Assembly (NCBI GenBank): GCA_035715365.1
Contig: DASTLB010000022.1
Location: 208,242 to 272,241, forward strand
Reading direction: 5' to 3'
Source: Kofleriaceae bacterium
GTDB taxonomy: Bacteria > Myxococcota_A > Polyangia > Haliangiales > Haliangiaceae
DNA length: 64,000 bases
A program made the translations under genes and the position numbers. This document shows positions 7,356-58,671 of this stretch, in pieces. The notes below the pieces were generated by a model. The model saw only the letters and a program-made list of their open reading frames with translations, did not search any database and was not told the origin of the DNA. Position 1 is the stretch's first letter, and the number at the start of each line of letters is the position of its first letter.

Positions 7356-7712
7356 ATGCAAAAGACCCTGTCGATCCTCCTCCTCTCCTGCGTCGCGCTG
7401 CTCGGCGCCTGCTCCAAGAACAAGGACAGCGAGCAAGCGCAGCGGCTCGGCGCGCTGTGCACCCAGGCGACCGACGATCTCAAGCGCGATGCCCAGGTCG
7501 CGGACATGAAGACGTTCCAGATGATGGTCTCGAACGCGCTGCTCGCGTGCAGCGGCGGCTGCGATGCCGGCGACGACCCGTCGTGCAAGGCGCTCGACGG
7601 TCACGTCGAGAAGCTGTGCAAGGTCAGCGCGTCGATGTGCACGGAGCTGTGCAAGACGTCCGAGGGCAAGAGCCTCAAGGACGCGACCTGTCGCCTTGCC
7701 GGAAAGAAGTGA
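7356..7712 (+). CDS. Small Cys-rich lipoprotein, hypothetical
   Basis: The internal Met of ORF 7326-7712 gives MQKTLSILLLSCVALLGAC with a lipobox. Ten Cys residues in about 118 aa. Confidence 0.5.
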   Translation: MQKTLSILLLSCVALLGACSKNKDSEQAQRLGALCTQATDDLKRDAQVADMKTFQMMVSNALLACSGGCDAGDDPSCKALDGHVEKLCKVSASMCTELCKTSEGKSLKDATCRLAGKK

Positions 7713-29573: not shown

Positions 29574-30368
29574 TCACGCCGGCGAGGCCGACAGTCCCAG
29601 GGCGCGCGACAGCCGCGTGAAGAAGCCGACCTGCGCGCGCGGCTCGACTTCCTGGCCCGCGAGCCGCTTCGCGATCCGCGCGAGCTCCTTCGCGGCGAGC
29701 GACTTGCCCTCGAGCACGGCCGGGATGCCCTTGTTCGTGGTCGCGACGATCTGATCGTCGAGCGGGATCGTGCCGAGCAGCTCGAGCGCGAGGATCTCGA
29801 TCACGTCGGTCTGCGACAGCATGTCGCCGCGCTTCACGAGGTGCGGCGCGATCCGGTTGACGATCAGGCGCGCCGGCACGTCGGCGGCGGCGAGCAGCCC
29901 GACGACGCGGTCGGCATCGCGGATCGACGAGACTTCGGGCGTCGCGACGACGACGGCCTCGTCGGCGCCGGCGATCGCGTTCTTGAAGCCCTGCTCGATC
30001 CCGGCGGGGCAATCGATCAGCACGAAGTCGTGCGTGTGCTTGAGCTCGGAGATGAGCGTGCGCATCTCCTCGGGCGCGACCGCGTCCTTGTCGTCGGTCT
30101 GCGACGCCGGAAGCATCCACAGGTTCTCCATGCGCCGATCCTTGATCAGCGCCTTCTGGACGCCGCACTTGCCTTTGATCGCGTCGACCAGGTGATAGAC
30201 GATCCGGTTCTCCAGACCCATCACCACGTCGAGGTTGCGCAAGCCGATGTCCGCATCGACGAGCACGACCGTGTGCCCGAGCTGGGCGAGCGCGGTGCCG
30301 AGATTGGCGGTGACCGTGGTCTTCCCCACTCCACCCTTCCCTGACGTGATGACGATTGCTCGACCCAT
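29574..30368 (-). CDS. minD: Septum site-determining ATPase MinD
   Basis: Deviant Walker A GKGGVGKTT, plus the DADIGLRNLD and LIDCPAGIE blocks. Confidence 0.9.
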   Translation of the reverse strand: MGRAIVITSGKGGVGKTTVTANLGTALAQLGHTVVLVDADIGLRNLDVVMGLENRIVYHLVDAIKGKCGVQKALIKDRRMENLWMLPASQTDDKDAVAPEEMRTLISELKHTHDFVLIDCPAGIEQGFKNAIAGADEAVVVATPEVSSIRDADRVVGLLAAADVPARLIVNRIAPHLVKRGDMLSQTDVIEILALELLGTIPLDDQIVATTNKGIPAVLEGKSLAAKELARIAKRLAGQEVEPRAQVGFFTRLSRALGLSASPA

Positions 30369-30380
30369 AGAAACTTCCTC

Positions 30381-31310
30381 CTAGATGCTTTCGGCGAGGT
30401 TGCGCGGCAGCCTGCCCGAGTAGTTCTCGACGGTGATGGCGCCGCCCGTGATGTGGGCGATCTCCGGGACCGAGCCCGGCTTGTCGGTCTCGCTCGCGCG
30501 CGCGACCGACCGACTGATGCGAAGTTGCTGGGGCTCGAGCCGCAGCGCGAGGATGAACGCGTTGTCGCGGCCGATGCCGGCATGGGCGGTTCCACGCAGC
30601 CGGCCGAGCACGACGATGTTGCCCTCGGCGCGGACCTCGGCGCCGGGATTGACGTCGCCGAAGATCACGACGTTGCCGCGATGCTCGAGGATCACGCCCG
30701 AGCGCACCGGCCCGAGCACCGTGCGCGTGCTCGGCGCCTCGACGACCGGGATGACCTCGGCCGGCGCGGCCGCGACCGGCGCCGACGGCGTGGCCTCGGC
30801 GTGGATGATCTCGATCGTCGGCGCCGACGGTTCGAGCGCGGCGATCGAAGACGACGGGGCGGGTGCCGAGGCCGCGGCCGAACCAGCCGCCAGATCGATG
30901 CTCGGCACGCCGCCGGAGGCGTGGGTGGGTGCGGACAGATCCGGCTTCTTCGCGGCGCCTACCTCGACGATCCGCATCTCGAGCTCGCTCACGATCGCGT
31001 CGAGCTTCGCGAGGCAGCCGGCGGGCAGCGGCCCGTCCTCGACGCGGATCCGCACGTCACTGCCGCGAAAGAACCCGGGCGCCTCCGCGAGCCGGCGGGT
31101 CACCGCCGCTGCGATCGCGGGCGTGCCGGCGCAGCTGTCGACGACGATCTCGAGCCCGCGCGCGCTGCCACGCAGGATCGCGGCCGGCTTGCCGGGATCA
31201 GCGGCCTCGCCGGTGGTCTCCACGATCGGAGGCGCGGCCTCCGGTGCAGAGACGTCGGAGCTCGCTTCGTTCGGTGGAGTGCTCGAAGTGCTCATATAGC
31301 CCGCTTGCAT
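30381..31310 (-). CDS. minC: Septum site-determining protein MinC
   Basis: C-terminal beta-helix block GNVVIFGDVNPGAEVRAEGNIVVLGRLRGTAHAG. Position immediately upstream of minD. The N-terminal half is Ala/Pro-rich. Confidence 0.75.
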   Translation of the reverse strand: MQAGYMSTSSTPPNEASSDVSAPEAAPPIVETTGEAADPGKPAAILRGSARGLEIVVDSCAGTPAIAAAVTRRLAEAPGFFRGSDVRIRVEDGPLPAGCLAKLDAIVSELEMRIVEVGAAKKPDLSAPTHASGGVPSIDLAAGSAAASAPAPSSSIAALEPSAPTIEIIHAEATPSAPVAAAPAEVIPVVEAPSTRTVLGPVRSGVILEHRGNVVIFGDVNPGAEVRAEGNIVVLGRLRGTAHAGIGRDNAFILALRLEPQQLRISRSVARASETDKPGSVPEIAHITGGAITVENYSGRLPRNLAESI

Positions 31311-32137: not shown

Positions 32138-32238
32138 GGCGGCGAGAATGCGCGAGAACCCTCGCACGTGCCATCACGAACGCGAACCTCACGACGCGAT
32201 TCGTGACGAATCCACCGACCTCGTGTAACAGTCGGGCC

Positions 32239-32925
32239 GTGTTGGAACGCTTCGATCGACTTGCCGCGCTTCGTGGCGATTCTGTCAAAGGCCTCCCCAC
32301 GTCCGCCTGGGCGACGAACCTCGACGATCTCGATCGCGACATGCTGATGCGTGCGGTGATCGAGGCGACGCGCACGCTGATCCTCGGCGAATGGGAGAGC
32401 AAGCGTCCCGACGATCGCCGCCCGCAGCAGGCGCTCGAGGCGACGGAGGCCTGGCTCGCGACGAAGAGCGACGAGGCCGCGCAGCAGGCGAAGGCCGCCG
32501 CGAAGGAATGCACCGCCGCCCGCAACGAGACGTTCGGCACCGACCACCGGATCCCCGAGGCCGCCCGCGCGGTCGCCTGGGCCGTGACCGCGAAGGACAA
32601 CTCGAACCTGTGGGAGGCGCTCGCCGCGATCGAGGGCGAGCTGCTCGCGCGCGTCAACCTGGTCGCCGAGTACCACCGGATTCCCGAGCAGCGACGAGCG
32701 CTCCTCGCGGTGCTGCGCAAGATGTTCGAGCCCAAGCCCGAGCCCGAGACGCCGGTCCACACCGGCCCGGTGCCGTACTCGGCGAGCGGCAACTTCGCGG
32801 TCGGCCAGCAGCTGACGCACGCGAAGTTCGGCGACCTCGTCGTCACCGCCGCGGGCGACAAGTGGATCGACGTCCAGCTCACCGACGGCACGACGAAGCG
32901 GCTCGCGCAGAAGCCGAAGGCCTAG
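32239..32925 (+). CDS. Hypothetical cytoplasmic protein
   Basis: Track ORF 32203-32925. The composition is protein-like. GTG at 32239 is a plausible start. No recognised domain. Confidence 0.45.
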   Translation: MLERFDRLAALRGDSVKGLPTSAWATNLDDLDRDMLMRAVIEATRTLILGEWESKRPDDRRPQQALEATEAWLATKSDEAAQQAKAAAKECTAARNETFGTDHRIPEAARAVAWAVTAKDNSNLWEALAAIEGELLARVNLVAEYHRIPEQRRALLAVLRKMFEPKPEPETPVHTGPVPYSASGNFAVGQQLTHAKFGDLVVTAAGDKWIDVQLTDGTTKRLAQKPKA

Positions 32926-33692
32926 AAGCCGAGCTTCGCGACGTTCTCGAGGTGATGGTCGCGCATGCCGACCACGTCTCGTGCACGCGGCAGCTCGATC
33001 GCCTCGGCAGCGTCGCGCGTCGTCGCCGCCTGCAGGCGGTCGAGGTACTCGACATCGGCGCGAGCGATCGCGAGCGCCTCGGCGGCGGGCATGCGGGGAC
33101 CGTGGCCGGGGATGACGTCGCGGACCTCGCCGAGCACGTCGATCAGCCGGTCGAGCGTGCGGCGATACGCGCGGGCGTCGTCGACGAACGGGATCTCGCA
33201 CGGCGACAGGTAGTCGCCGACGAGCAGCGTGCCGGTGTCCTCGACGACGAGCGCGAGATCGTCGGGGCTGTGGCCCGGCAGCTGGAGCGCGCGGACGCGG
33301 ATGCCGGCGAGGTCGCGCGTGGTCTCGTCGATCGGCGCGAGCGCGGCGGGCCAGCGATGGCCGTGGGGGCGCGGGACATACCACCGCGAGTCGAACTCGC
33401 GCGCGTCCTCGAGGTAGCGCGCGGCGCGCGGATCACCGGCGGCGATCGCGTCCGCGAGCGTGCGGTTGACGTGGACCGGCGCGCCGGGCAGCGCGGTGTG
33501 GCCCATCACGTGGTCCCAGTGGCCGTGCGTGAACACGACGGTGGCGGCGTGGCCGAGCTCGCGGACGCGCGCGGCGATCGCGTCGAGCTCGCGCGGGAAG
33601 TACGCCGGATCGACGACGATGCAGGCGCCGCGATGCTCGACGATCGTCGACGTCGTCTGCCAGATGCCGCTCGTGAAGACGACGAGCTGCAC
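32922..33692 (-). CDS. MBL-fold metallo-hydrolase
   Basis: The real part of track ORF 32922-34169 is about 256 aa from the GTG at 33692. HxHxDH motif (FTHGHWDHV). It overlaps the downstream gene by 4 nt. Confidence 0.75.
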   Translation of the reverse strand: MQLVVFTSGIWQTTSTIVEHRGACIVVDPAYFPRELDAIAARVRELGHAATVVFTHGHWDHVMGHTALPGAPVHVNRTLADAIAAGDPRAARYLEDAREFDSRWYVPRPHGHRWPAALAPIDETTRDLAGIRVRALQLPGHSPDDLALVVEDTGTLLVGDYLSPCEIPFVDDARAYRRTLDRLIDVLGEVRDVIPGHGPRMPAAEALAIARADVEYLDRLQAATTRDAAEAIELPRARDVVGMRDHHLENVAKLGF

Positions 33693-33697
33693 GCGGA

Positions 33698-34222
33698 TTA
33701 GCCCTCGACGTGGAGCTCGATCATCACGGTGCCGTCGTCCTTGCGCGACCACCGCACCGCGGTGAGCGCGAGGTCCTCGAGGTCGTGCCCCCAGATCCCG
33801 TACGCGCCGTCGGTGCGGTTGCGGCTGCGGATCTCGCCGCGCTCCGACGGTGGCACGGTCTTCGTGTGCGCGGTGCCTTCCTCGGCCTCGTAGACCGCGG
33901 CGTACTCGTCGCAGATCGCGCGCACGAGCTCGGCGCGCGTGAACCCGATCGGATACGACGCGGAAAGCTTCACCGTCGCGGGATGGGTCAGCGGGTAGTC
34001 GATGACGAGCGTCGCGTGCTCGAACGGGATCACGATCTCGTCGGGATGCGTGAGCTGCGCGACGGCGAGGTTCGCGTCGGCGAGCTTGAGGCCGCCGGGG
34101 AACGCGATCCGCTGGACCATCATCGCGACCTTCTTCTCGGTCACCGGGACGCGCGCGATCCACATCCACATCACCGCGATGCCGATCGCGACGAAGAGCA
34201 AGCTCACCGTGACGTACGTCAT
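33698..34222 (-). CDS. Membrane-anchored hypothetical protein
   Basis: N-terminal TM helix (TVSLLFVAIGIAVMWMWIA). Confidence 0.5.
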   Translation of the reverse strand: MTYVTVSLLFVAIGIAVMWMWIARVPVTEKKVAMMVQRIAFPGGLKLADANLAVAQLTHPDEIVIPFEHATLVIDYPLTHPATVKLSASYPIGFTRAELVRAICDEYAAVYEAEEGTAHTKTVPPSERGEIRSRNRTDGAYGIWGHDLEDLALTAVRWSRKDDGTVMIELHVEG

Positions 34223-34238
34223 CCGAGGCAACCCTAGC

Positions 34239-34883
34239 TCAGTTCGCGCCCTCGATCATCGCCCGCACGGCCGCGACCGCCCAGGCGCGATCGATCTGCA
34301 GCTCGTCGGGCCCCGGTGCCGCGCGTGAGACGAGCTTCTCGTACTGGGCGATCGGGCTGGCCTGCGCGCGTGGCTCGCGGCCCTGCTCGTCGAACAGCAC
34401 CCAGTGGATCAGCGCGGGGTGCGTGTCGTTCGCAGGCTCGATGCGATCGAACAGCAGCACGCGCGCCAGCTCGCCGTCGCCGAGCGATGCGAGCAGCAGC
34501 ACCTTCATCATCTCGATCGCCCAGTCGGCGAGCCCGGCGTCGAGGATCTTCACCTTCTCGAGCAGCGCGTTCTGCGTCGGCACGAGCCGCCGCGTCGACG
34601 TGCCCGGCCCGAGCGTCGCCTGCAGCAGCTCGCCCGCCTTCGCCATCTCGTCGGGGCCGCCGGGCACGACCTGCGCGTAGAAGTCCGCGTCCGGATCGTG
34701 GAACACGAGCGTCGCGACGAGCTGCGTACGCTTGCCGCACGCGCACGCGAGGATGTTGAGCTCGCCGGCGACCAGGCGCTGCTTCGCATCGCGATCGGTC
34801 CGCGTGTTGATGCTCTGGACGAGCGCGACGTCCTGCTCGGTGCCGCAGCCCGGACAGCGCACGCGCGCGGTGCCCTTGATCAT
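34239..34883 (-). CDS. CpXC-domain protein
   Basis: CPGCG...CACG spacing typical of the CpXC family. Start at the internal Met (MIKGT). Confidence 0.6.
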   Translation of the reverse strand: MIKGTARVRCPGCGTEQDVALVQSINTRTDRDAKQRLVAGELNILACACGKRTQLVATLVFHDPDADFYAQVVPGGPDEMAKAGELLQATLGPGTSTRRLVPTQNALLEKVKILDAGLADWAIEMMKVLLLASLGDGELARVLLFDRIEPANDTHPALIHWVLFDEQGREPRAQASPIAQYEKLVSRAAPGPDELQIDRAWAVAAVRAMIEGAN

Positions 34884-35122
34884 GGAGCGCACCCTACCGC
34901 GGGCGCGCGGCTACGAGCCAGCCGTGCGATCGGATCGCACGCCGTGTACTGACTGTGAGTCAACTGTGATCTCGCACGCGGTTGCCACCTCGCGGAATCG
35001 CTCCGTTGCTCGGAGTCGACAAAAGTGCCCGCGGCGGCGACGGCGTTTCGCGCAGATCGCGCGGGCATACCGGCTGCACATGGGACTTCTTGACTTCAAC
35101 CCAACAGCCAAGGGAACCACAG

Positions 35123-35443
35123 ATGAACGATGCACTCTTGACGATCGATCTCGCGAACCTCGAATGTGTCCACGGCGGCCAGCAGGGCGGCTCGTGGATC
35201 AACCGTGACAACTGGGCGGGTGCCGGTCGCCAGGTCGGCCAGTACGGCGGCGCGGCAGCGGGGGCTGCGGCGGGCGCTGCGACCGTGCCTGGCACCGGCC
35301 CCGGAGCGGCGGCGGCGGCCGGCGTCGGTGGCGCGGCTGGCTACAACCTCGGCGGCTGGCTCGGCAGCAAGGTCGGCGGTGCGCTGTACGACGCCGGCTC
35401 GGCGATCGGCGACAAGGTCGGCGGCTGGATCTACGGCAAGTGA
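35123..35443 (+). CDS. Bacteriocin-like precursor: double-glycine leader peptide plus Gly-rich (Gly-zipper) core
   Basis: The real part of track ORF 34982-35443. The ATG at 35123 is preceded by AAGGGA. The leader MNDALLTIDLANLECVHGG has hydrophobic residues at -4, -7, -12 and -15 relative to GG. The core QQGGSWINRDNWAGAGRQVGQYGGAAAGAAAGAATVPG...GGWLGSKVGGALYDAGSAIGDKVGGWIYGK has GxxxG repeats. Confidence 0.65.
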   Translation: MNDALLTIDLANLECVHGGQQGGSWINRDNWAGAGRQVGQYGGAAAGAAAGAATVPGTGPGAAAAAGVGGAAGYNLGGWLGSKVGGALYDAGSAIGDKVGGWIYGK

Positions 35444-35456
35444 GCGGAGGTCGCGG

Positions 35457-35472
35457 CCGGCGTTCGCGCCGG
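35457..35472 (+). terminator. GC hairpin (CCGGCG-TTCG-CGCCGG) 13 nt after the stop of the GG-leader peptide gene
   Basis: Seen directly. No U-tract. Confidence 0.3.
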
Positions 35473-35557
35473 TCGACGACGCTCTCGCTCGCTGCCCGAG
35501 CTGGATGGCACGTGGATGGTGCAGGTCATCTGGATCGGGTGGCGAGCCAGCGCGTCG

Positions 35558-36624
35558 TCACGGGACGAGCACGAGCTTGCCGACGGTGCGACCGGACTCG
35601 ATGTCCGCGTGCGCCCGCGCGACGTCGGCGAGCGGATAGGTCTGGATCGGCGGCGGCACGACCTTGCCGGCTTCGATCCAGCCGATCAGCTCGGCCATCG
35701 CCTCGTGCATCAGCTCGACGCGATCGAACAGGTAGCTCAGGTTGAACGCGAGCACGCTCTTGCTCGCGTCGGTCATGTCGAGCGGCGAGAACCGCGGCGT
35801 GCGCAGCCAGTCGATCGCGAGCTTGCCCCACTGCGGCTTGCCGCCCGCTTTCGGCAGCATCGAGTGAAAGCCGTAGACGACGAGCTTGCCGGCGCGCCGC
35901 AGGTGATCGTAGCTCGCGCGCAGCGTCGCCACGCCGTTCGCGTCGAGGATCACGTCGTAGCCATCGGGTGCGAGCCGCTCGGCCTCGCGCCACAGCTCGT
36001 GCTTCGACTTGTCGATCACGTGATCGGCGCCGAGTGCCTTCGCGCTCGCGACCTTGTCGCTGCGCCCGACGACGCCGACGACCTCGCAGCCGCGCAGCTT
36101 CGCGAGCTGGATCAGCGCGCCGCCGACACCACCGGCGGCCGAGTGCACGAGCAGCTTCTGACCGCGCCGCGGATGCGCGAGCTCGAACAGCGCCCACCAC
36201 GCGGTCAGGTACACGGCCGGCATCGCCGCCGCCTGCTCGAACGACAGCGCGCGCGGCTTGCGGAACACCTGGTGCTGCGGCACGACGAGCGTCGAGCTGT
36301 AGCCGCCGAACCGCGTCACCGCGATCACCTCGTCGCCGATCGCGAGCCCCGTGACGCCGTCGCCGATCGCATCGATCGTCCCGGCGACCTCGAACCCCGG
36401 GGTGATCGGCCAGCCGACGTACTGCTTCGCCGACGAGTACAGCCCCATCCGCACGACGACGTCCGCGTAGTTGACGCCGATCGCGCGCACCGCGATCCGG
36501 ACCTCGCCGCGTTTCGGTGACGGGGTTGGTGTGGTGACGAGCTCGAGCTTGTCGTGGCCGCCGGCGGAGCGGATCACGATCTGGCGGGTCGGTGCGAGCG
36601 AGCTGCGTGCGGCGGGGACGGTCA
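35558..36624 (-). CDS. Zn-dependent/MDR-family NAD(P)H quinone oxidoreductase
   Basis: The real part of track ORF 35558-36937 starts at MQAMTV. GVNYADV, AAGGVGGA Rossmann motif. About 355 aa. Confidence 0.8.
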
Positions 36625-36668
36625 TGGCTTGCATCCGGCGGATGTAGATCGGCGCGTCGCGGCCGGCA

Positions 36669-54278: not shown

Positions 54279-54668
54279 CTAGCGACGCAGCTGGACGTCC
54301 GCGTGGTCCGGCAAGCTGTGGTCGAAGCCGCGCGGCTGATACAGATCGGCGCGCATGTCGCGCTCGGGTGCGCGGTCGTCGATCCGGCGATGGATCACGC
54401 CGCCGCCACCACGCGGCCGGATCTCGACCCAGAACGGCGAGCTTCGCACCTGCTGGCGCGACAGCCCGAGCGCGCGCAGCCCCGAATCCGTCATCGCGAC
54501 CGACTCGTCGCGGACGAGCGGGTGATACGCACCGTGACCCTTGCGCGTCTCCGAGTCACCGTACGGATCGTTGGGATAGCCGTACTGCGTGAGCTTCATG
54601 TTGACGCCGCCCCATGCACGCTGGAGCTGATCGATCGACAGACCCTCGAGCTGGTTCTCGTTCGACAT
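54279..54668 (-). CDS. Double-glycine-leader protein with a DPBB/3D-like (RlpA/MltA-type) core; candidate exported cell-wall-active bacteriocin
   Basis: The leader MSNENQLEGLSIDQLQRAWGG fits the LSxx(E/D)LxxIxGG double-glycine consensus. The core (about 108 aa, TQYGYPNDPYGDSETRKGHGA...AMTDSGLRALGL...FWVEIRPRGGGGVIHRRIDDRAPE..RADLYQP) resembles the 3D/RlpA double-psi beta-barrel pattern (V.V.N..G.S..VR.NDRGP...IDLS). The domain assignment is by eye. Confidence 0.55.
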   Translation of the reverse strand: MSNENQLEGLSIDQLQRAWGGVNMKLTQYGYPNDPYGDSETRKGHGAYHPLVRDESVAMTDSGLRALGLSRQQVRSSPFWVEIRPRGGGGVIHRRIDDRAPERDMRADLYQPRGFDHSLPDHADVQLRR

Positions 54669-54671
54669 GGC

Positions 54672-54923
54672 TCACCGCCCCCTCGGAAAGTAGGCGTCGA
54701 GTTGGCCCTTGAACATGCCGAGCCCCGCCTCGTCGAGGCAGCGCTCCGCGATCGGCCGCGTGATCGGCCGGCTCTTGTTCGCGGCAGCGGTCTGCGGGCA
54801 GTACTGCTGCGCGAGTGCGCGCAGCTCGGCGGGACTCTTCGTCGCCGCCTGTCCGCCGCACACGCCGGCAAGGAGGTGGGGAGATACGTCGGTGAACGGT
54901 TCGGGATGGCTCGGCATGTCCAT
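54672..54923 (-). CDS. Small Cys-containing hypothetical protein, tightly coupled upstream partner of the GG-leader gene
   Basis: The last 84 codons of track ORF 54672-54992 (MDMPSHPEPFTDVSPHLLAGVCGG...) lie 3 nt upstream of the next start. No signal peptide. Confidence 0.4.
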   Translation of the reverse strand: MDMPSHPEPFTDVSPHLLAGVCGGQAATKSPAELRALAQQYCPQTAAANKSRPITRPIAERCLDEAGLGMFKGQLDAYFPRGR

Positions 54924-55080: not shown

Positions 55081-58002
<2,922 letters not shown>

Positions 58003-58671
58003 GACCCCTCCTTGAACTGGTGCTGCGGTGAAATGGTGCAATGCGGGTATGATCTCGAGCGCGAGATCGCAGCCACCGAAGGCACGGCTCCGCCTGCAGC
58101 GTCCGGTGTCGGACCGGACGTGCGGAGCCCCTTAGGTGGATGACGAGATTCGCGAGCGAGAGCGGCGGTGATTCCGCGATGGCCTGCTTGGGAGAGCCGT
58201 GTACCGGATGCCTATGACAACTGCCGTGGACGAGCGGGACTGCCGGGACTGCCAGGACTGCGTTGCGTCAAAACGGCGAATAGACTTCCGAACGAGGGGG
58301 CGTGATCCAAGTGGGATATCGCGGCGTGGGTCTTTCTTAACGAGGTGAGCCGCGGAGGGCAAGAAAAAGAGCCACTAGATTTGGGGGGTCCAGCGGGAGT
58401 CAATCCTACATATAGTGTGTGGCCGTGTGAGATATTCACGTGGGCATCCTGTGGATTGACAGTGAATTGTGGATGCCTGTGGACGGGTTTCCGCAGCGAT
58501 TCCCGCCCGTTGATATGTCCTGTGGATAACCCTGTGGGTAGGACAAAAAGCGTGAATTGACGCGACGAGTTACGGGCAGATCCCCACTTGAAAAAAATTT
58601 GCGACGCGATCGCCGATGCGGTGGAAAGGGAGTTTCGGCCGCGCGCCCAACCGCGCGATCGCGACGCGGCC
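58003..58671 (-). promoter_or_regulatory. Long lower-GC leader/promoter region of nrdJ with direct repeats and NrdR-box-like palindromes
   Basis: (GGACTGCC)x3 at 58236-58262. CCTGTGG(A/G) x4 at 58448, 58476, 58519 and 58531. AT-rich palindromes ACATATAGTGT (58408-58418) and GTGAGATATTCAC (58427-58439). The GC content is visibly lower than in flanking DNA. Confidence 0.5.

Follow-up and report, generated by a model that had tools for sequence, protein, structure and literature searches.

Glycine-zipper peptides with double-glycine leaders in Kofleriaceae: an orphan precursor gene and its relatives

What does a small, solitary gene for a glycine-rich protein make in a Kofleriaceae genome, and is its product sent out of the cell? 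The gene lies in a window of 64,000 nucleotides – the whole stretch of DNA analysed here – from a bacterium placed in the Kofleriaceae (Myxococcota, Polyangia, Haliangiales). A first-pass annotation had read it as the precursor of a bacteriocin-like peptide with a canonical double-glycine leader, and translation of the open reading frame at 35123-35443 (+) reproduces the 106-aa precursor it described. The features around which the discussion turns are the following:

34239-34892, minus strand: CpXC protein, upstream of and divergent from the peptide gene
35110-35115, plus strand: Shine–Dalgarno-like AAGGGA, 7 nt before the ATG, as read from the sequence
35123-35179, plus strand: double-glycine leader, residues 1-19 (MNDALLTIDLANLECVHGG), with predicted cleavage after G19
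35180-35440, plus strand: predicted mature peptide, residues 20-106 (87 aa), conserved in relatives
35237-35275, plus strand: glycine zipper 1, G39-x3-G43-x3-G47-x3-G51, reaching G35 across R36 (register analysis)
35282-35305, plus strand: Pro/Gly turn TVPGTGPG, residues 54-61, between the zippers
35303-35377, plus strand: glycine zipper 2, G61, (A65), G69, G73, G77, G81 and G85 in one i+4 register
35375-35434, plus strand: polar C-terminal motif, conserved in the family: GGALYDAGSAIGDKVGGWIY (consensus GGxhYDAGSWhGxKVGNWLY)
35441-35443, plus strand: stop codon of the peptide gene
35435-35496, plus strand: GC-rich stem-loop overlapping the stop codon, between the convergent genes
35558-36625, minus strand: Zn-dependent medium-chain dehydrogenase, downstream of and convergent with the peptide gene

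The gene and its relatives

Both signals that had been claimed for the gene, a Shine–Dalgarno sequence and a downstream GC hairpin, are present in the DNA. The stem-loop (-51.6 kcal/mol; z = -3.5 versus shuffles) is probably a terminator, though one with no T-tract – which is why a simple terminator scan skips it – and a scan of the peptide locus for consensus promoters and terminators made no call. A longer ORF with a TTG start (34982-35443, 153 aa) is ruled out by GC3 together with the Met positions in relatives: in-frame GC3 is 0.84 in the peptide ORF and 0.64 in the upstream TTG extension, the whole window being 70% GC. That translation might start elsewhere, a weakness foreseen when the gene was first described, is contradicted by the relatives, since every one of them keeps a Met 15-29 residues ahead of the conserved GG motif. 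An RNA explanation for the locus was also considered and dropped, as Rfam gave sub-threshold noise only.

A word-indexed search of 5.8 billion proteins returned only four relatives (51-78% identity); a profile search of 1.84 billion representatives gave 23 proteins at E <= 1e-3, to which a second profile search added more. The family comprises about 45 distinct proteins, nearly all of 100-120 aa. Every one stems from a metagenome or a MAG, and informative source names are limited to Kofleriaceae and one 'Proteobacteria bacterium' MAG. Searches for loci contributed one from 185,579 species genomes and four from metagenome contigs.

Across the unsaturated pairs of relatives for which DNA is available, dN/dS lies between 0.17 and 0.37. 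Individual values (L numbers denote loci) are 0.165 for L019 versus L020, 0.166 for L018 versus L006, 0.19 for the L021 paralogues, 0.24 for the L014 paralogues and 0.37 for L001 versus L005, while L009 and L013 are separated by four synonymous and no non-synonymous differences. Two loci, L003 and L004, are 100% identical to the window in DNA and therefore say nothing about variation. Two other assemblies were gene-called independently, and both yield the identical 106-aa product with the same surroundings. The peptide gene is real, and its protein is under purifying selection.

Part of this region can be matched to existing GenBank records. Entries HEU0030723, 724, 726 and 727 (VFQ53_08820, 08840, 08945) match the neighbours or the second GG-leader protein of the window; for two of them, protein P0048 and the CpXC protein, GenBank has entries at 100% identity, and the other neighbours fall into the same 90%-identity clusters. 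By this numbering the slot of the peptide would be HEU0030725 / VFQ53_08830, which is probably annotated with another start and as a hypothetical protein.

The double-glycine leader

The hydrophobic residues claimed for the leader can be read from the translation: V16, L13, I8 and L5 stand at -4, -7, -12 and -15 relative to G18-G19, in a segment that is acidic overall (pI 4.05). By itself this motif is weak evidence, since the bare leader regex matches nine times in the six-frame translation of the window. It also matches at 7515-7559 (+) (FQMMVSNALLACSGG/CDAGDD), where the sequence has the look of a lipoprotein signal peptide, lipobox included, and not of a GG leader, a sign of how unspecific the bare motif is. 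The weight for the leader lies instead with GC3, with dN/dS and with the retention of the pattern in 39 of 40 relatives.

What these 39 share is the canonical arrangement h(-15)xxh(-12)xxxxL(-7)xxV/I(-4)xGG, which in this family takes the form [FL]-x-T-[IL]-x4-L-x2-[VI]-x-G-G, in leaders of 15-29 residues when counted from the nearest upstream Met. Position -15 is F, L, I or M in 39/39 and position -12 is I or L in 39/39; L at -7 and G at -2 are equally without exception (39/39 each). V or I occupies -4 in 38/39, G occupies -1 in 37/39 (the remaining two have one S and one A), and T is found at -13 in 29/39. The glycine-zipper peptide family does not conserve the Glu(-8) that belongs to the ComA consensus. 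In the LahT–leader co-crystal, leader residues -12, -7 and -4 and the GG dock into the C39 protease domain (PMC6363468), and it is these C39-contacting positions that are the most tightly constrained here. A leader of 15-30 residues ending in GG, GA or GS, with hydrophobic residues at -4, -7, -12 and -15, is the mark of double-glycine-leader peptides (PCAT/AMS substrates), and the 19-residue leader of the window peptide and the leaders of its relatives show these features.

It had been recognised from the start that orthologues might turn out to be conserved lipoproteins or structural glycine-zipper membrane proteins. This fails, because no relative has a lipobox or a Sec signal peptide; the window N-terminus is acidic and has no basic n-region. 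From their sequences, the relatives are well supported as a genuine family of double-glycine-leader precursors, and selection on the leader at the positions read by a C39 peptidase is likewise well supported.

The same evidence bears on the idea that the protein is never cleaved, but stays in the inner membrane or cytoplasm as a glycine-zipper protein like the SlyB/Rick_17kDa-type 2TM domain, its N-terminus mimicking a GG leader without PCAT export. We consider this unlikely. Against Pfam, the sole match of the window peptide is Gly-zipper_Omp at E 4.7; this match, that of a relative to the same model (E 0.075) and a weak one to YiaD_Gzip_OmpA (E 0.054) lean towards an uncleaved protein but are weak and composition-driven, and the lack of a transporter nearby leans the same way. 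Against it, pattern constraint in the family is strongest over the first 19 residues and falls exactly where a C39 domain reads; neither signal peptide nor lipobox is present; the family profile aligns significantly with genuine GG leaders; and the core has too much polar character to form a stable hairpin across the membrane. Glycine-zipper outer-membrane lipoproteins of the PF13488, PF05433, YiaD or SlyB type carry, in front of the zipper, a Sec/lipoprotein signal peptide with a lipobox Cys, and the window peptide has none.

The core and known peptide families

The description of the mature peptide as some 87 aa long and about 30% Gly, with repeated GxxxG motifs, holds in each particular: the core has 87 aa, 26 Gly (29.9%), 20 Ala (23%) and 12 overlapping GxxxG motifs. 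It has a mass of 8,050 Da, is basic (pI 9.2) and contains no Cys. Next to the GG, the core opens with [IVLQ]-[DT]-R-x-x-[YFW] across the family, and then follows a common layout – two glycine-zipper stretches with a Pro-containing turn between them, and a conserved tail. Within this layout, P60 of the TVPGTGPG turn is nearly invariant among relatives, G77 and G81 of the second zipper are invariant or nearly so, and in the C-terminal motif D90 is nearly invariant and G96 invariant. Core GRAVY is 0.00, and since no 19-residue window exceeds 0.75, the core is not a classical transmembrane segment. AF2, run on a 25-sequence alignment, proposes a helix-turn-helix hairpin with a helix at 28-53, in a model that is unreliable (pLDDT 50.6).

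Matches to curated models are few. The window peptide has no match in NCBIfam, and the suggested check with TIGR01847-type models did not bear out: it returned nothing for the window peptide and one weak match (E 0.021) among 23 relatives. PF10439 (Bacteriocin_IIc) is matched by nine of those 23 relatives at 22-26 bits, with a best E of 8.3e-6 and alignments that span almost the whole 59-position model; relatives' scores for this model range from 15 to 26 bits, all below the gathering cut-off of 27.1. Among the same 23, four match ComC and two match MccV (best E 0.033). A PDB sequence search with the family profile gave compositional noise (E >= 0.09).

Profile comparison reaches further. With hhalign, the family profile aligns to a provisional sequence of colicin V at 90.9% and E 1.1e-6 over the leader and about 26 core residues; in BLASTP with the window peptide the leader alone aligns (E 0.09), and the relationship is thus visible only by comparing profiles. 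A Cdz-like profile, built from 19 published peptides (supplementary file 1, PMC5380434), aligns at 92.4%, limited to 18 leader columns with the cores unaligned. The family HMM scores CdzD at 17 bits over its full length, and family member P0019 scores 39.6 bits with the Cdz HMM, values to both of which Gly/Ala composition may contribute. At the level of the core, similarity to colicin V and to Cdz peptides is weak, and the same composition could inflate it. As far as sequence statistics go, the family is related to colicin V, to Bacteriocin_IIc and to Cdz leaders, and the label 'bacteriocin-like' finds support in the nine sub-threshold PF10439 matches among 23 relatives and in the colicin V and Cdz alignments.

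The closest counterpart in overall build is colicin V/microcin V (CvaC; PF17508, PF10439). Both are unmodified peptides of Gram-negative producers (for the window family, as judged from the genes) with a double-glycine leader carrying hydrophobics at -4, -7, -12 and -15; the precursors have about 100 aa (103 in CvaC, 106 here), the cores have 88 aa with a GRAVY of -0.00 and 87 aa with one of 0.00, and the N-terminal half of the core is Gly/Ala-rich. By eye, we take GGAIYDYAS of colicin V to resemble GGALYDAGS of the window peptide. The two differ in that the window gene has no adjoining cvaA/cvaB-type exporter or immunity gene, and its core has no C-terminal disulfide domain and is richer in Gly (30% versus 17%); the host belongs to the Myxococcota and not to the Enterobacteriaceae, and the family remains below Pfam thresholds. 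Measured against class II microcins as a whole, the window peptide has a core below 10 kDa, no Cys and no modification gene nearby, and comes from a Kofleriaceae MAG. What it does not have is a cluster of PCAT, membrane-fusion protein and adjacent small membrane immunity gene, or an above-threshold match to PF10439, PF17508 or TIGR01847.

Cdz-like proteins are defined by four features of their sequence: a length of 60-151 aa; a leader that ends in G[GAS]; a single glycine zipper or two, which Pro or charge may flank but never interrupt; and a short polar or charged C-terminus (Garcia-Bayona, Guo and Laub 2017, PMC5380434). All four features are found in the window peptide – 106 aa, a GG leader, zippers at G39-G51 and G61-G81 (bounded by R36, P56/P60 and K83) and a tail from S82 to K106. 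With CdzC/CdzD (PMC5380434) the family further shares the leader-level profile match and, in some relatives, tandem pairs; it differs in that type I secretion genes of the CdzAB type are missing from the 10 kb around its loci, and in a much less hydrophobic core (GRAVY 0.00 versus 0.8-1.05; G+A+V+I+L 66% versus 75-80%). None of the 239 published Cdz-like proteins is from Myxococcota (PMC5380434).

Class IIb two-peptide bacteriocins also combine a GG leader with GxxxG motifs, and tandem paralogous peptides and, in L014, a small downstream membrane gene of the immunity type occur in relatives too. In contrast, the window gene is single-copy, its core is 2-3 times longer, class IIb producers are Gram-positive whereas the envelope here is of Gram-negative type, and the match to TIGR03949 is single and very weak (E 0.21).

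Lanthipeptides and Nif11/NHLP-type RiPPs use GG-type leaders as well, which counts for reading the gene as a RiPP precursor whose core would be modified post-translationally before GG-dependent export. That reading strikes us as highly improbable, given a core with neither Cys nor a Ser/Thr/Cys pattern, a leader of only 19 aa and, across 8 distinct genomic contexts, no modification enzyme conserved beside the family genes.

Genomic setting and possible function

The flanking genes are those named at the outset, a CpXC protein and an oxidoreductase (the Zn-dependent medium-chain dehydrogenase), and the peptide gene is monocistronic. The CpXC gene apparently heads a minus-strand run with two more genes, at 33698-34231 (-) and 32922-33692 (-), divergent from the peptide gene; they encode a 174-177-aa protein with one N-terminal hydrophobic helix and no Pfam match, and a metallo-beta-lactamase-fold protein. 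Further upstream, 2.2 kb from the peptide gene, a 240-aa protein (32203-32925, +) matches Pfam Imm5_like (E 4.8e-6; 26.9 bits, cut-off 25), a putative polymorphic-toxin immunity family; the 240-aa protein is cytoplasmic in type.

The gene was also described as an orphan, and so it appears. Regex and Pfam searches find no C39, PCAT or HlyD-type gene in the 64-kb window, and none of these lies beside the relatives in 21 loci (8 distinct contexts) with flanks of up to 10 kb. The only Walker A motif in the window is the unrelated P-loop of MinD; the MinD-like gene (29574-30368, -) belongs to a Min region (29574-31310, -) with a MinE-like ORF downstream and a MinC-like ORF upstream (30381-31310; names given by eye), an ordinary housekeeping context. 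The only ABC genes seen at the loci of relatives, a pair in L019 and L020, proved to encode a generic heterodimeric exporter without a C39 domain.

No small membrane-protein or immunity gene adjoins the window peptide gene, and a 182-aa 'gene' downstream of the peptide in L001, considered as an immunity candidate, is an Arg-rich out-of-frame artefact. The picture is different in L014, the locus of a distant relative, where a 130-aa multi-helix membrane protein follows a tandem peptide pair by 38 bp. The pair is flanked as follows:

L014:1079-1471, plus strand: small multi-helix membrane protein, no Pfam match
L014:1860-2351, minus strand: small multi-helix membrane protein, no Pfam match

The two proteins are paralogous (39% identical) and are candidate immunity proteins, in an arrangement that looks like a bacteriocin with its immunity; the window has no homologue of the 130-aa protein. 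Tandem paralogue pairs occur in four contexts altogether (L006-L008, L014-L017, L018 and L021). The family loci sit among housekeeping genes, with neighbours that differ between contexts, and the L001 and L005 loci are syntenic across MAGs. Such loci are unlike typical mobile bacteriocin islands.

A second GG-leader gene had been reported for the window at 54279-54668, and it exists, on the minus strand. Its 129-aa product (MSNENQLEGLSIDQLQRAWGG/VNMKLTQYGYPNDPYGD...) is unrelated to the glycine-zipper family and has no match in Pfam; the family to which it belongs is large and well conserved. The best 120 of its 389 matches are 67-100% identical, the named relatives among the matches listed being mostly Kofleriaceae MAGs; in this family the GG is invariant and the leader pattern L(-15), L/I(-12), L(-7), A(-4) is conserved. 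An AF2 model (pLDDT 66.8) shows a weak likeness to double-psi beta-barrels (E ~1e-2, TM ~0.43), with matches to FwdD, the p97 N-domain, a designed DPBB, PA4485, cerato-platanin and barwin; a secreted DPBB protein that carries a GG leader is a possible reading. Directly upstream lies an 82-aa ORF (54672-54917, -; MPSHPEPFTDVSPHLLAGVCGG/QAATKSPAELRALAQQYCP...CLDEAGLGMFKGQLDAYFPRGR) whose product combines two conserved Cys with a leader of the GG type (LVIDPSLLSTVCGG); in other genomes (L022-L025) a 78-81-aa partner precedes a 128-aa gene in the same way. The window thus holds three GG-leader genes, of which the 82-aa and 129-aa pair forms a conserved operon, adjoined by a class II (B12-type) ribonucleotide reductase (55081-58041, -).

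With the leader family genuine and selected at the positions that C39 reads, the most likely mechanism is that a type I system of the PCAT kind, with its genes elsewhere, exports the precursor and cuts it after G19, and the presence of two other conserved GG-leader genes in the window suggests that the organism has a GG-dependent exporter. We read the gene as probably encoding the ribosomally made precursor of a double-glycine-leader peptide that stays unmodified, and put the chance that this peptide kills in the manner of a microcin or Cdz toxin at about even. What we infer – export, cleavage site, hairpin fold, oligomerisation and killing – would run as follows. A transporter encoded elsewhere in the genome would act together with two partners, a membrane-fusion protein and a channel in the outer membrane, and would remove the leader after G19 as the precursor is exported. 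Once free, the basic peptide of 87 residues (8 kDa) would adopt a hairpin fold, with the TVPGTGPG turn linking its two glycine-zipper helices. Copies of it would then pack against one another by their GxxxG motifs, within or upon the envelopes of competitors, and damage membranes in the way of a microcin-like or Cdz-like toxin.

In favour of a killing peptide are a core with the size and hydropathy of colicin V, the lack of Cys and of a modification enzyme nearby, and the bacteriocin-style look of loci with tandem paralogues and, in L014, a downstream membrane protein. Against it stand the lack of a PCAT nearby, of an adjoining immunity gene and of a curated-model match for the window peptide, the low hydrophobicity relative to CdzC/D, the unreliable AF2 model and the housekeeping, syntenic loci.

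Several of these points feed a different view, namely that the peptide is exported and cleaved without being an antibiotic: its Gly/Ala-rich core might self-assemble as a surface or matrix fibril, or serve as a cell–cell cue. This is possible, though we would not expect it to be the case. It is kept alive by the missing immunity gene – as would fit a peptide harmless to its producer – by the housekeeping and syntenic contexts and by the modest hydrophobicity, and it suits myxobacteria, which are social and build matrices. A glycine-zipper, Ala-rich composition is moreover typical of aggregating proteins (PMC5380434), and GG-motif proteins without an antibiotic role are known (PMC4997328; PMC13188072), with precedents in the EbfG proteins that enable Synechococcus biofilm and in self-assembling microcins of Acinetobacter. 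EbfG1-4 of Synechococcus elongatus, which are paired with the PteB transporter, are like the window peptide small proteins with a microcin-type GG secretion motif, have cores unrelated to it in sequence – the glycine-zipper family is not known to have a tie to biofilm – and illustrate that a GG leader alone does not imply a bacteriocin (PMC4997328). Weighing against this view, the closest statistical matches are bacteriocin families, an immunity-like membrane protein lies directly downstream of the peptides in L014, and the basic, microcin-sized core is like colicin V in size and hydropathy.

A broader and slightly more tentative proposal takes in all three conserved GG-leader genes of the window, which belong to two unrelated families and of which none is near a transporter. 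In Kofleriaceae the GG leader might mark proteins for secretion more generally, beyond its role as the signal of a bacteriocin cluster, with the genes dispersed over the genome and a single distant PCAT, or a few, serving this scattered 'GG secretome'; within it the glycine-zipper family might be a chromosomally fixed, vertically inherited weapon of contact or predation, or a kin-recognition factor, of these social myxobacteria.

Secreted peptides of this kind – unmodified, glycine-rich and with a GG leader – are known. The microcin and Cdz literature searched describes neither this family nor such a lineage for it, in the Kofleriaceae (Myxococcota), nor its consistently orphan position, and gene searches that demand a neighbouring PCAT would miss it. 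With it come some 45 natural variants of an unmodified peptide of 8 kDa, open to direct testing in CvaAB secretion screens already in use. Nearly all validated class II microcins and Cdz-type glycine-zipper toxins are from Proteobacteria, and this family would extend GG-leader peptide warfare, or GG-dependent secretion, to the predatory, social myxobacteria.
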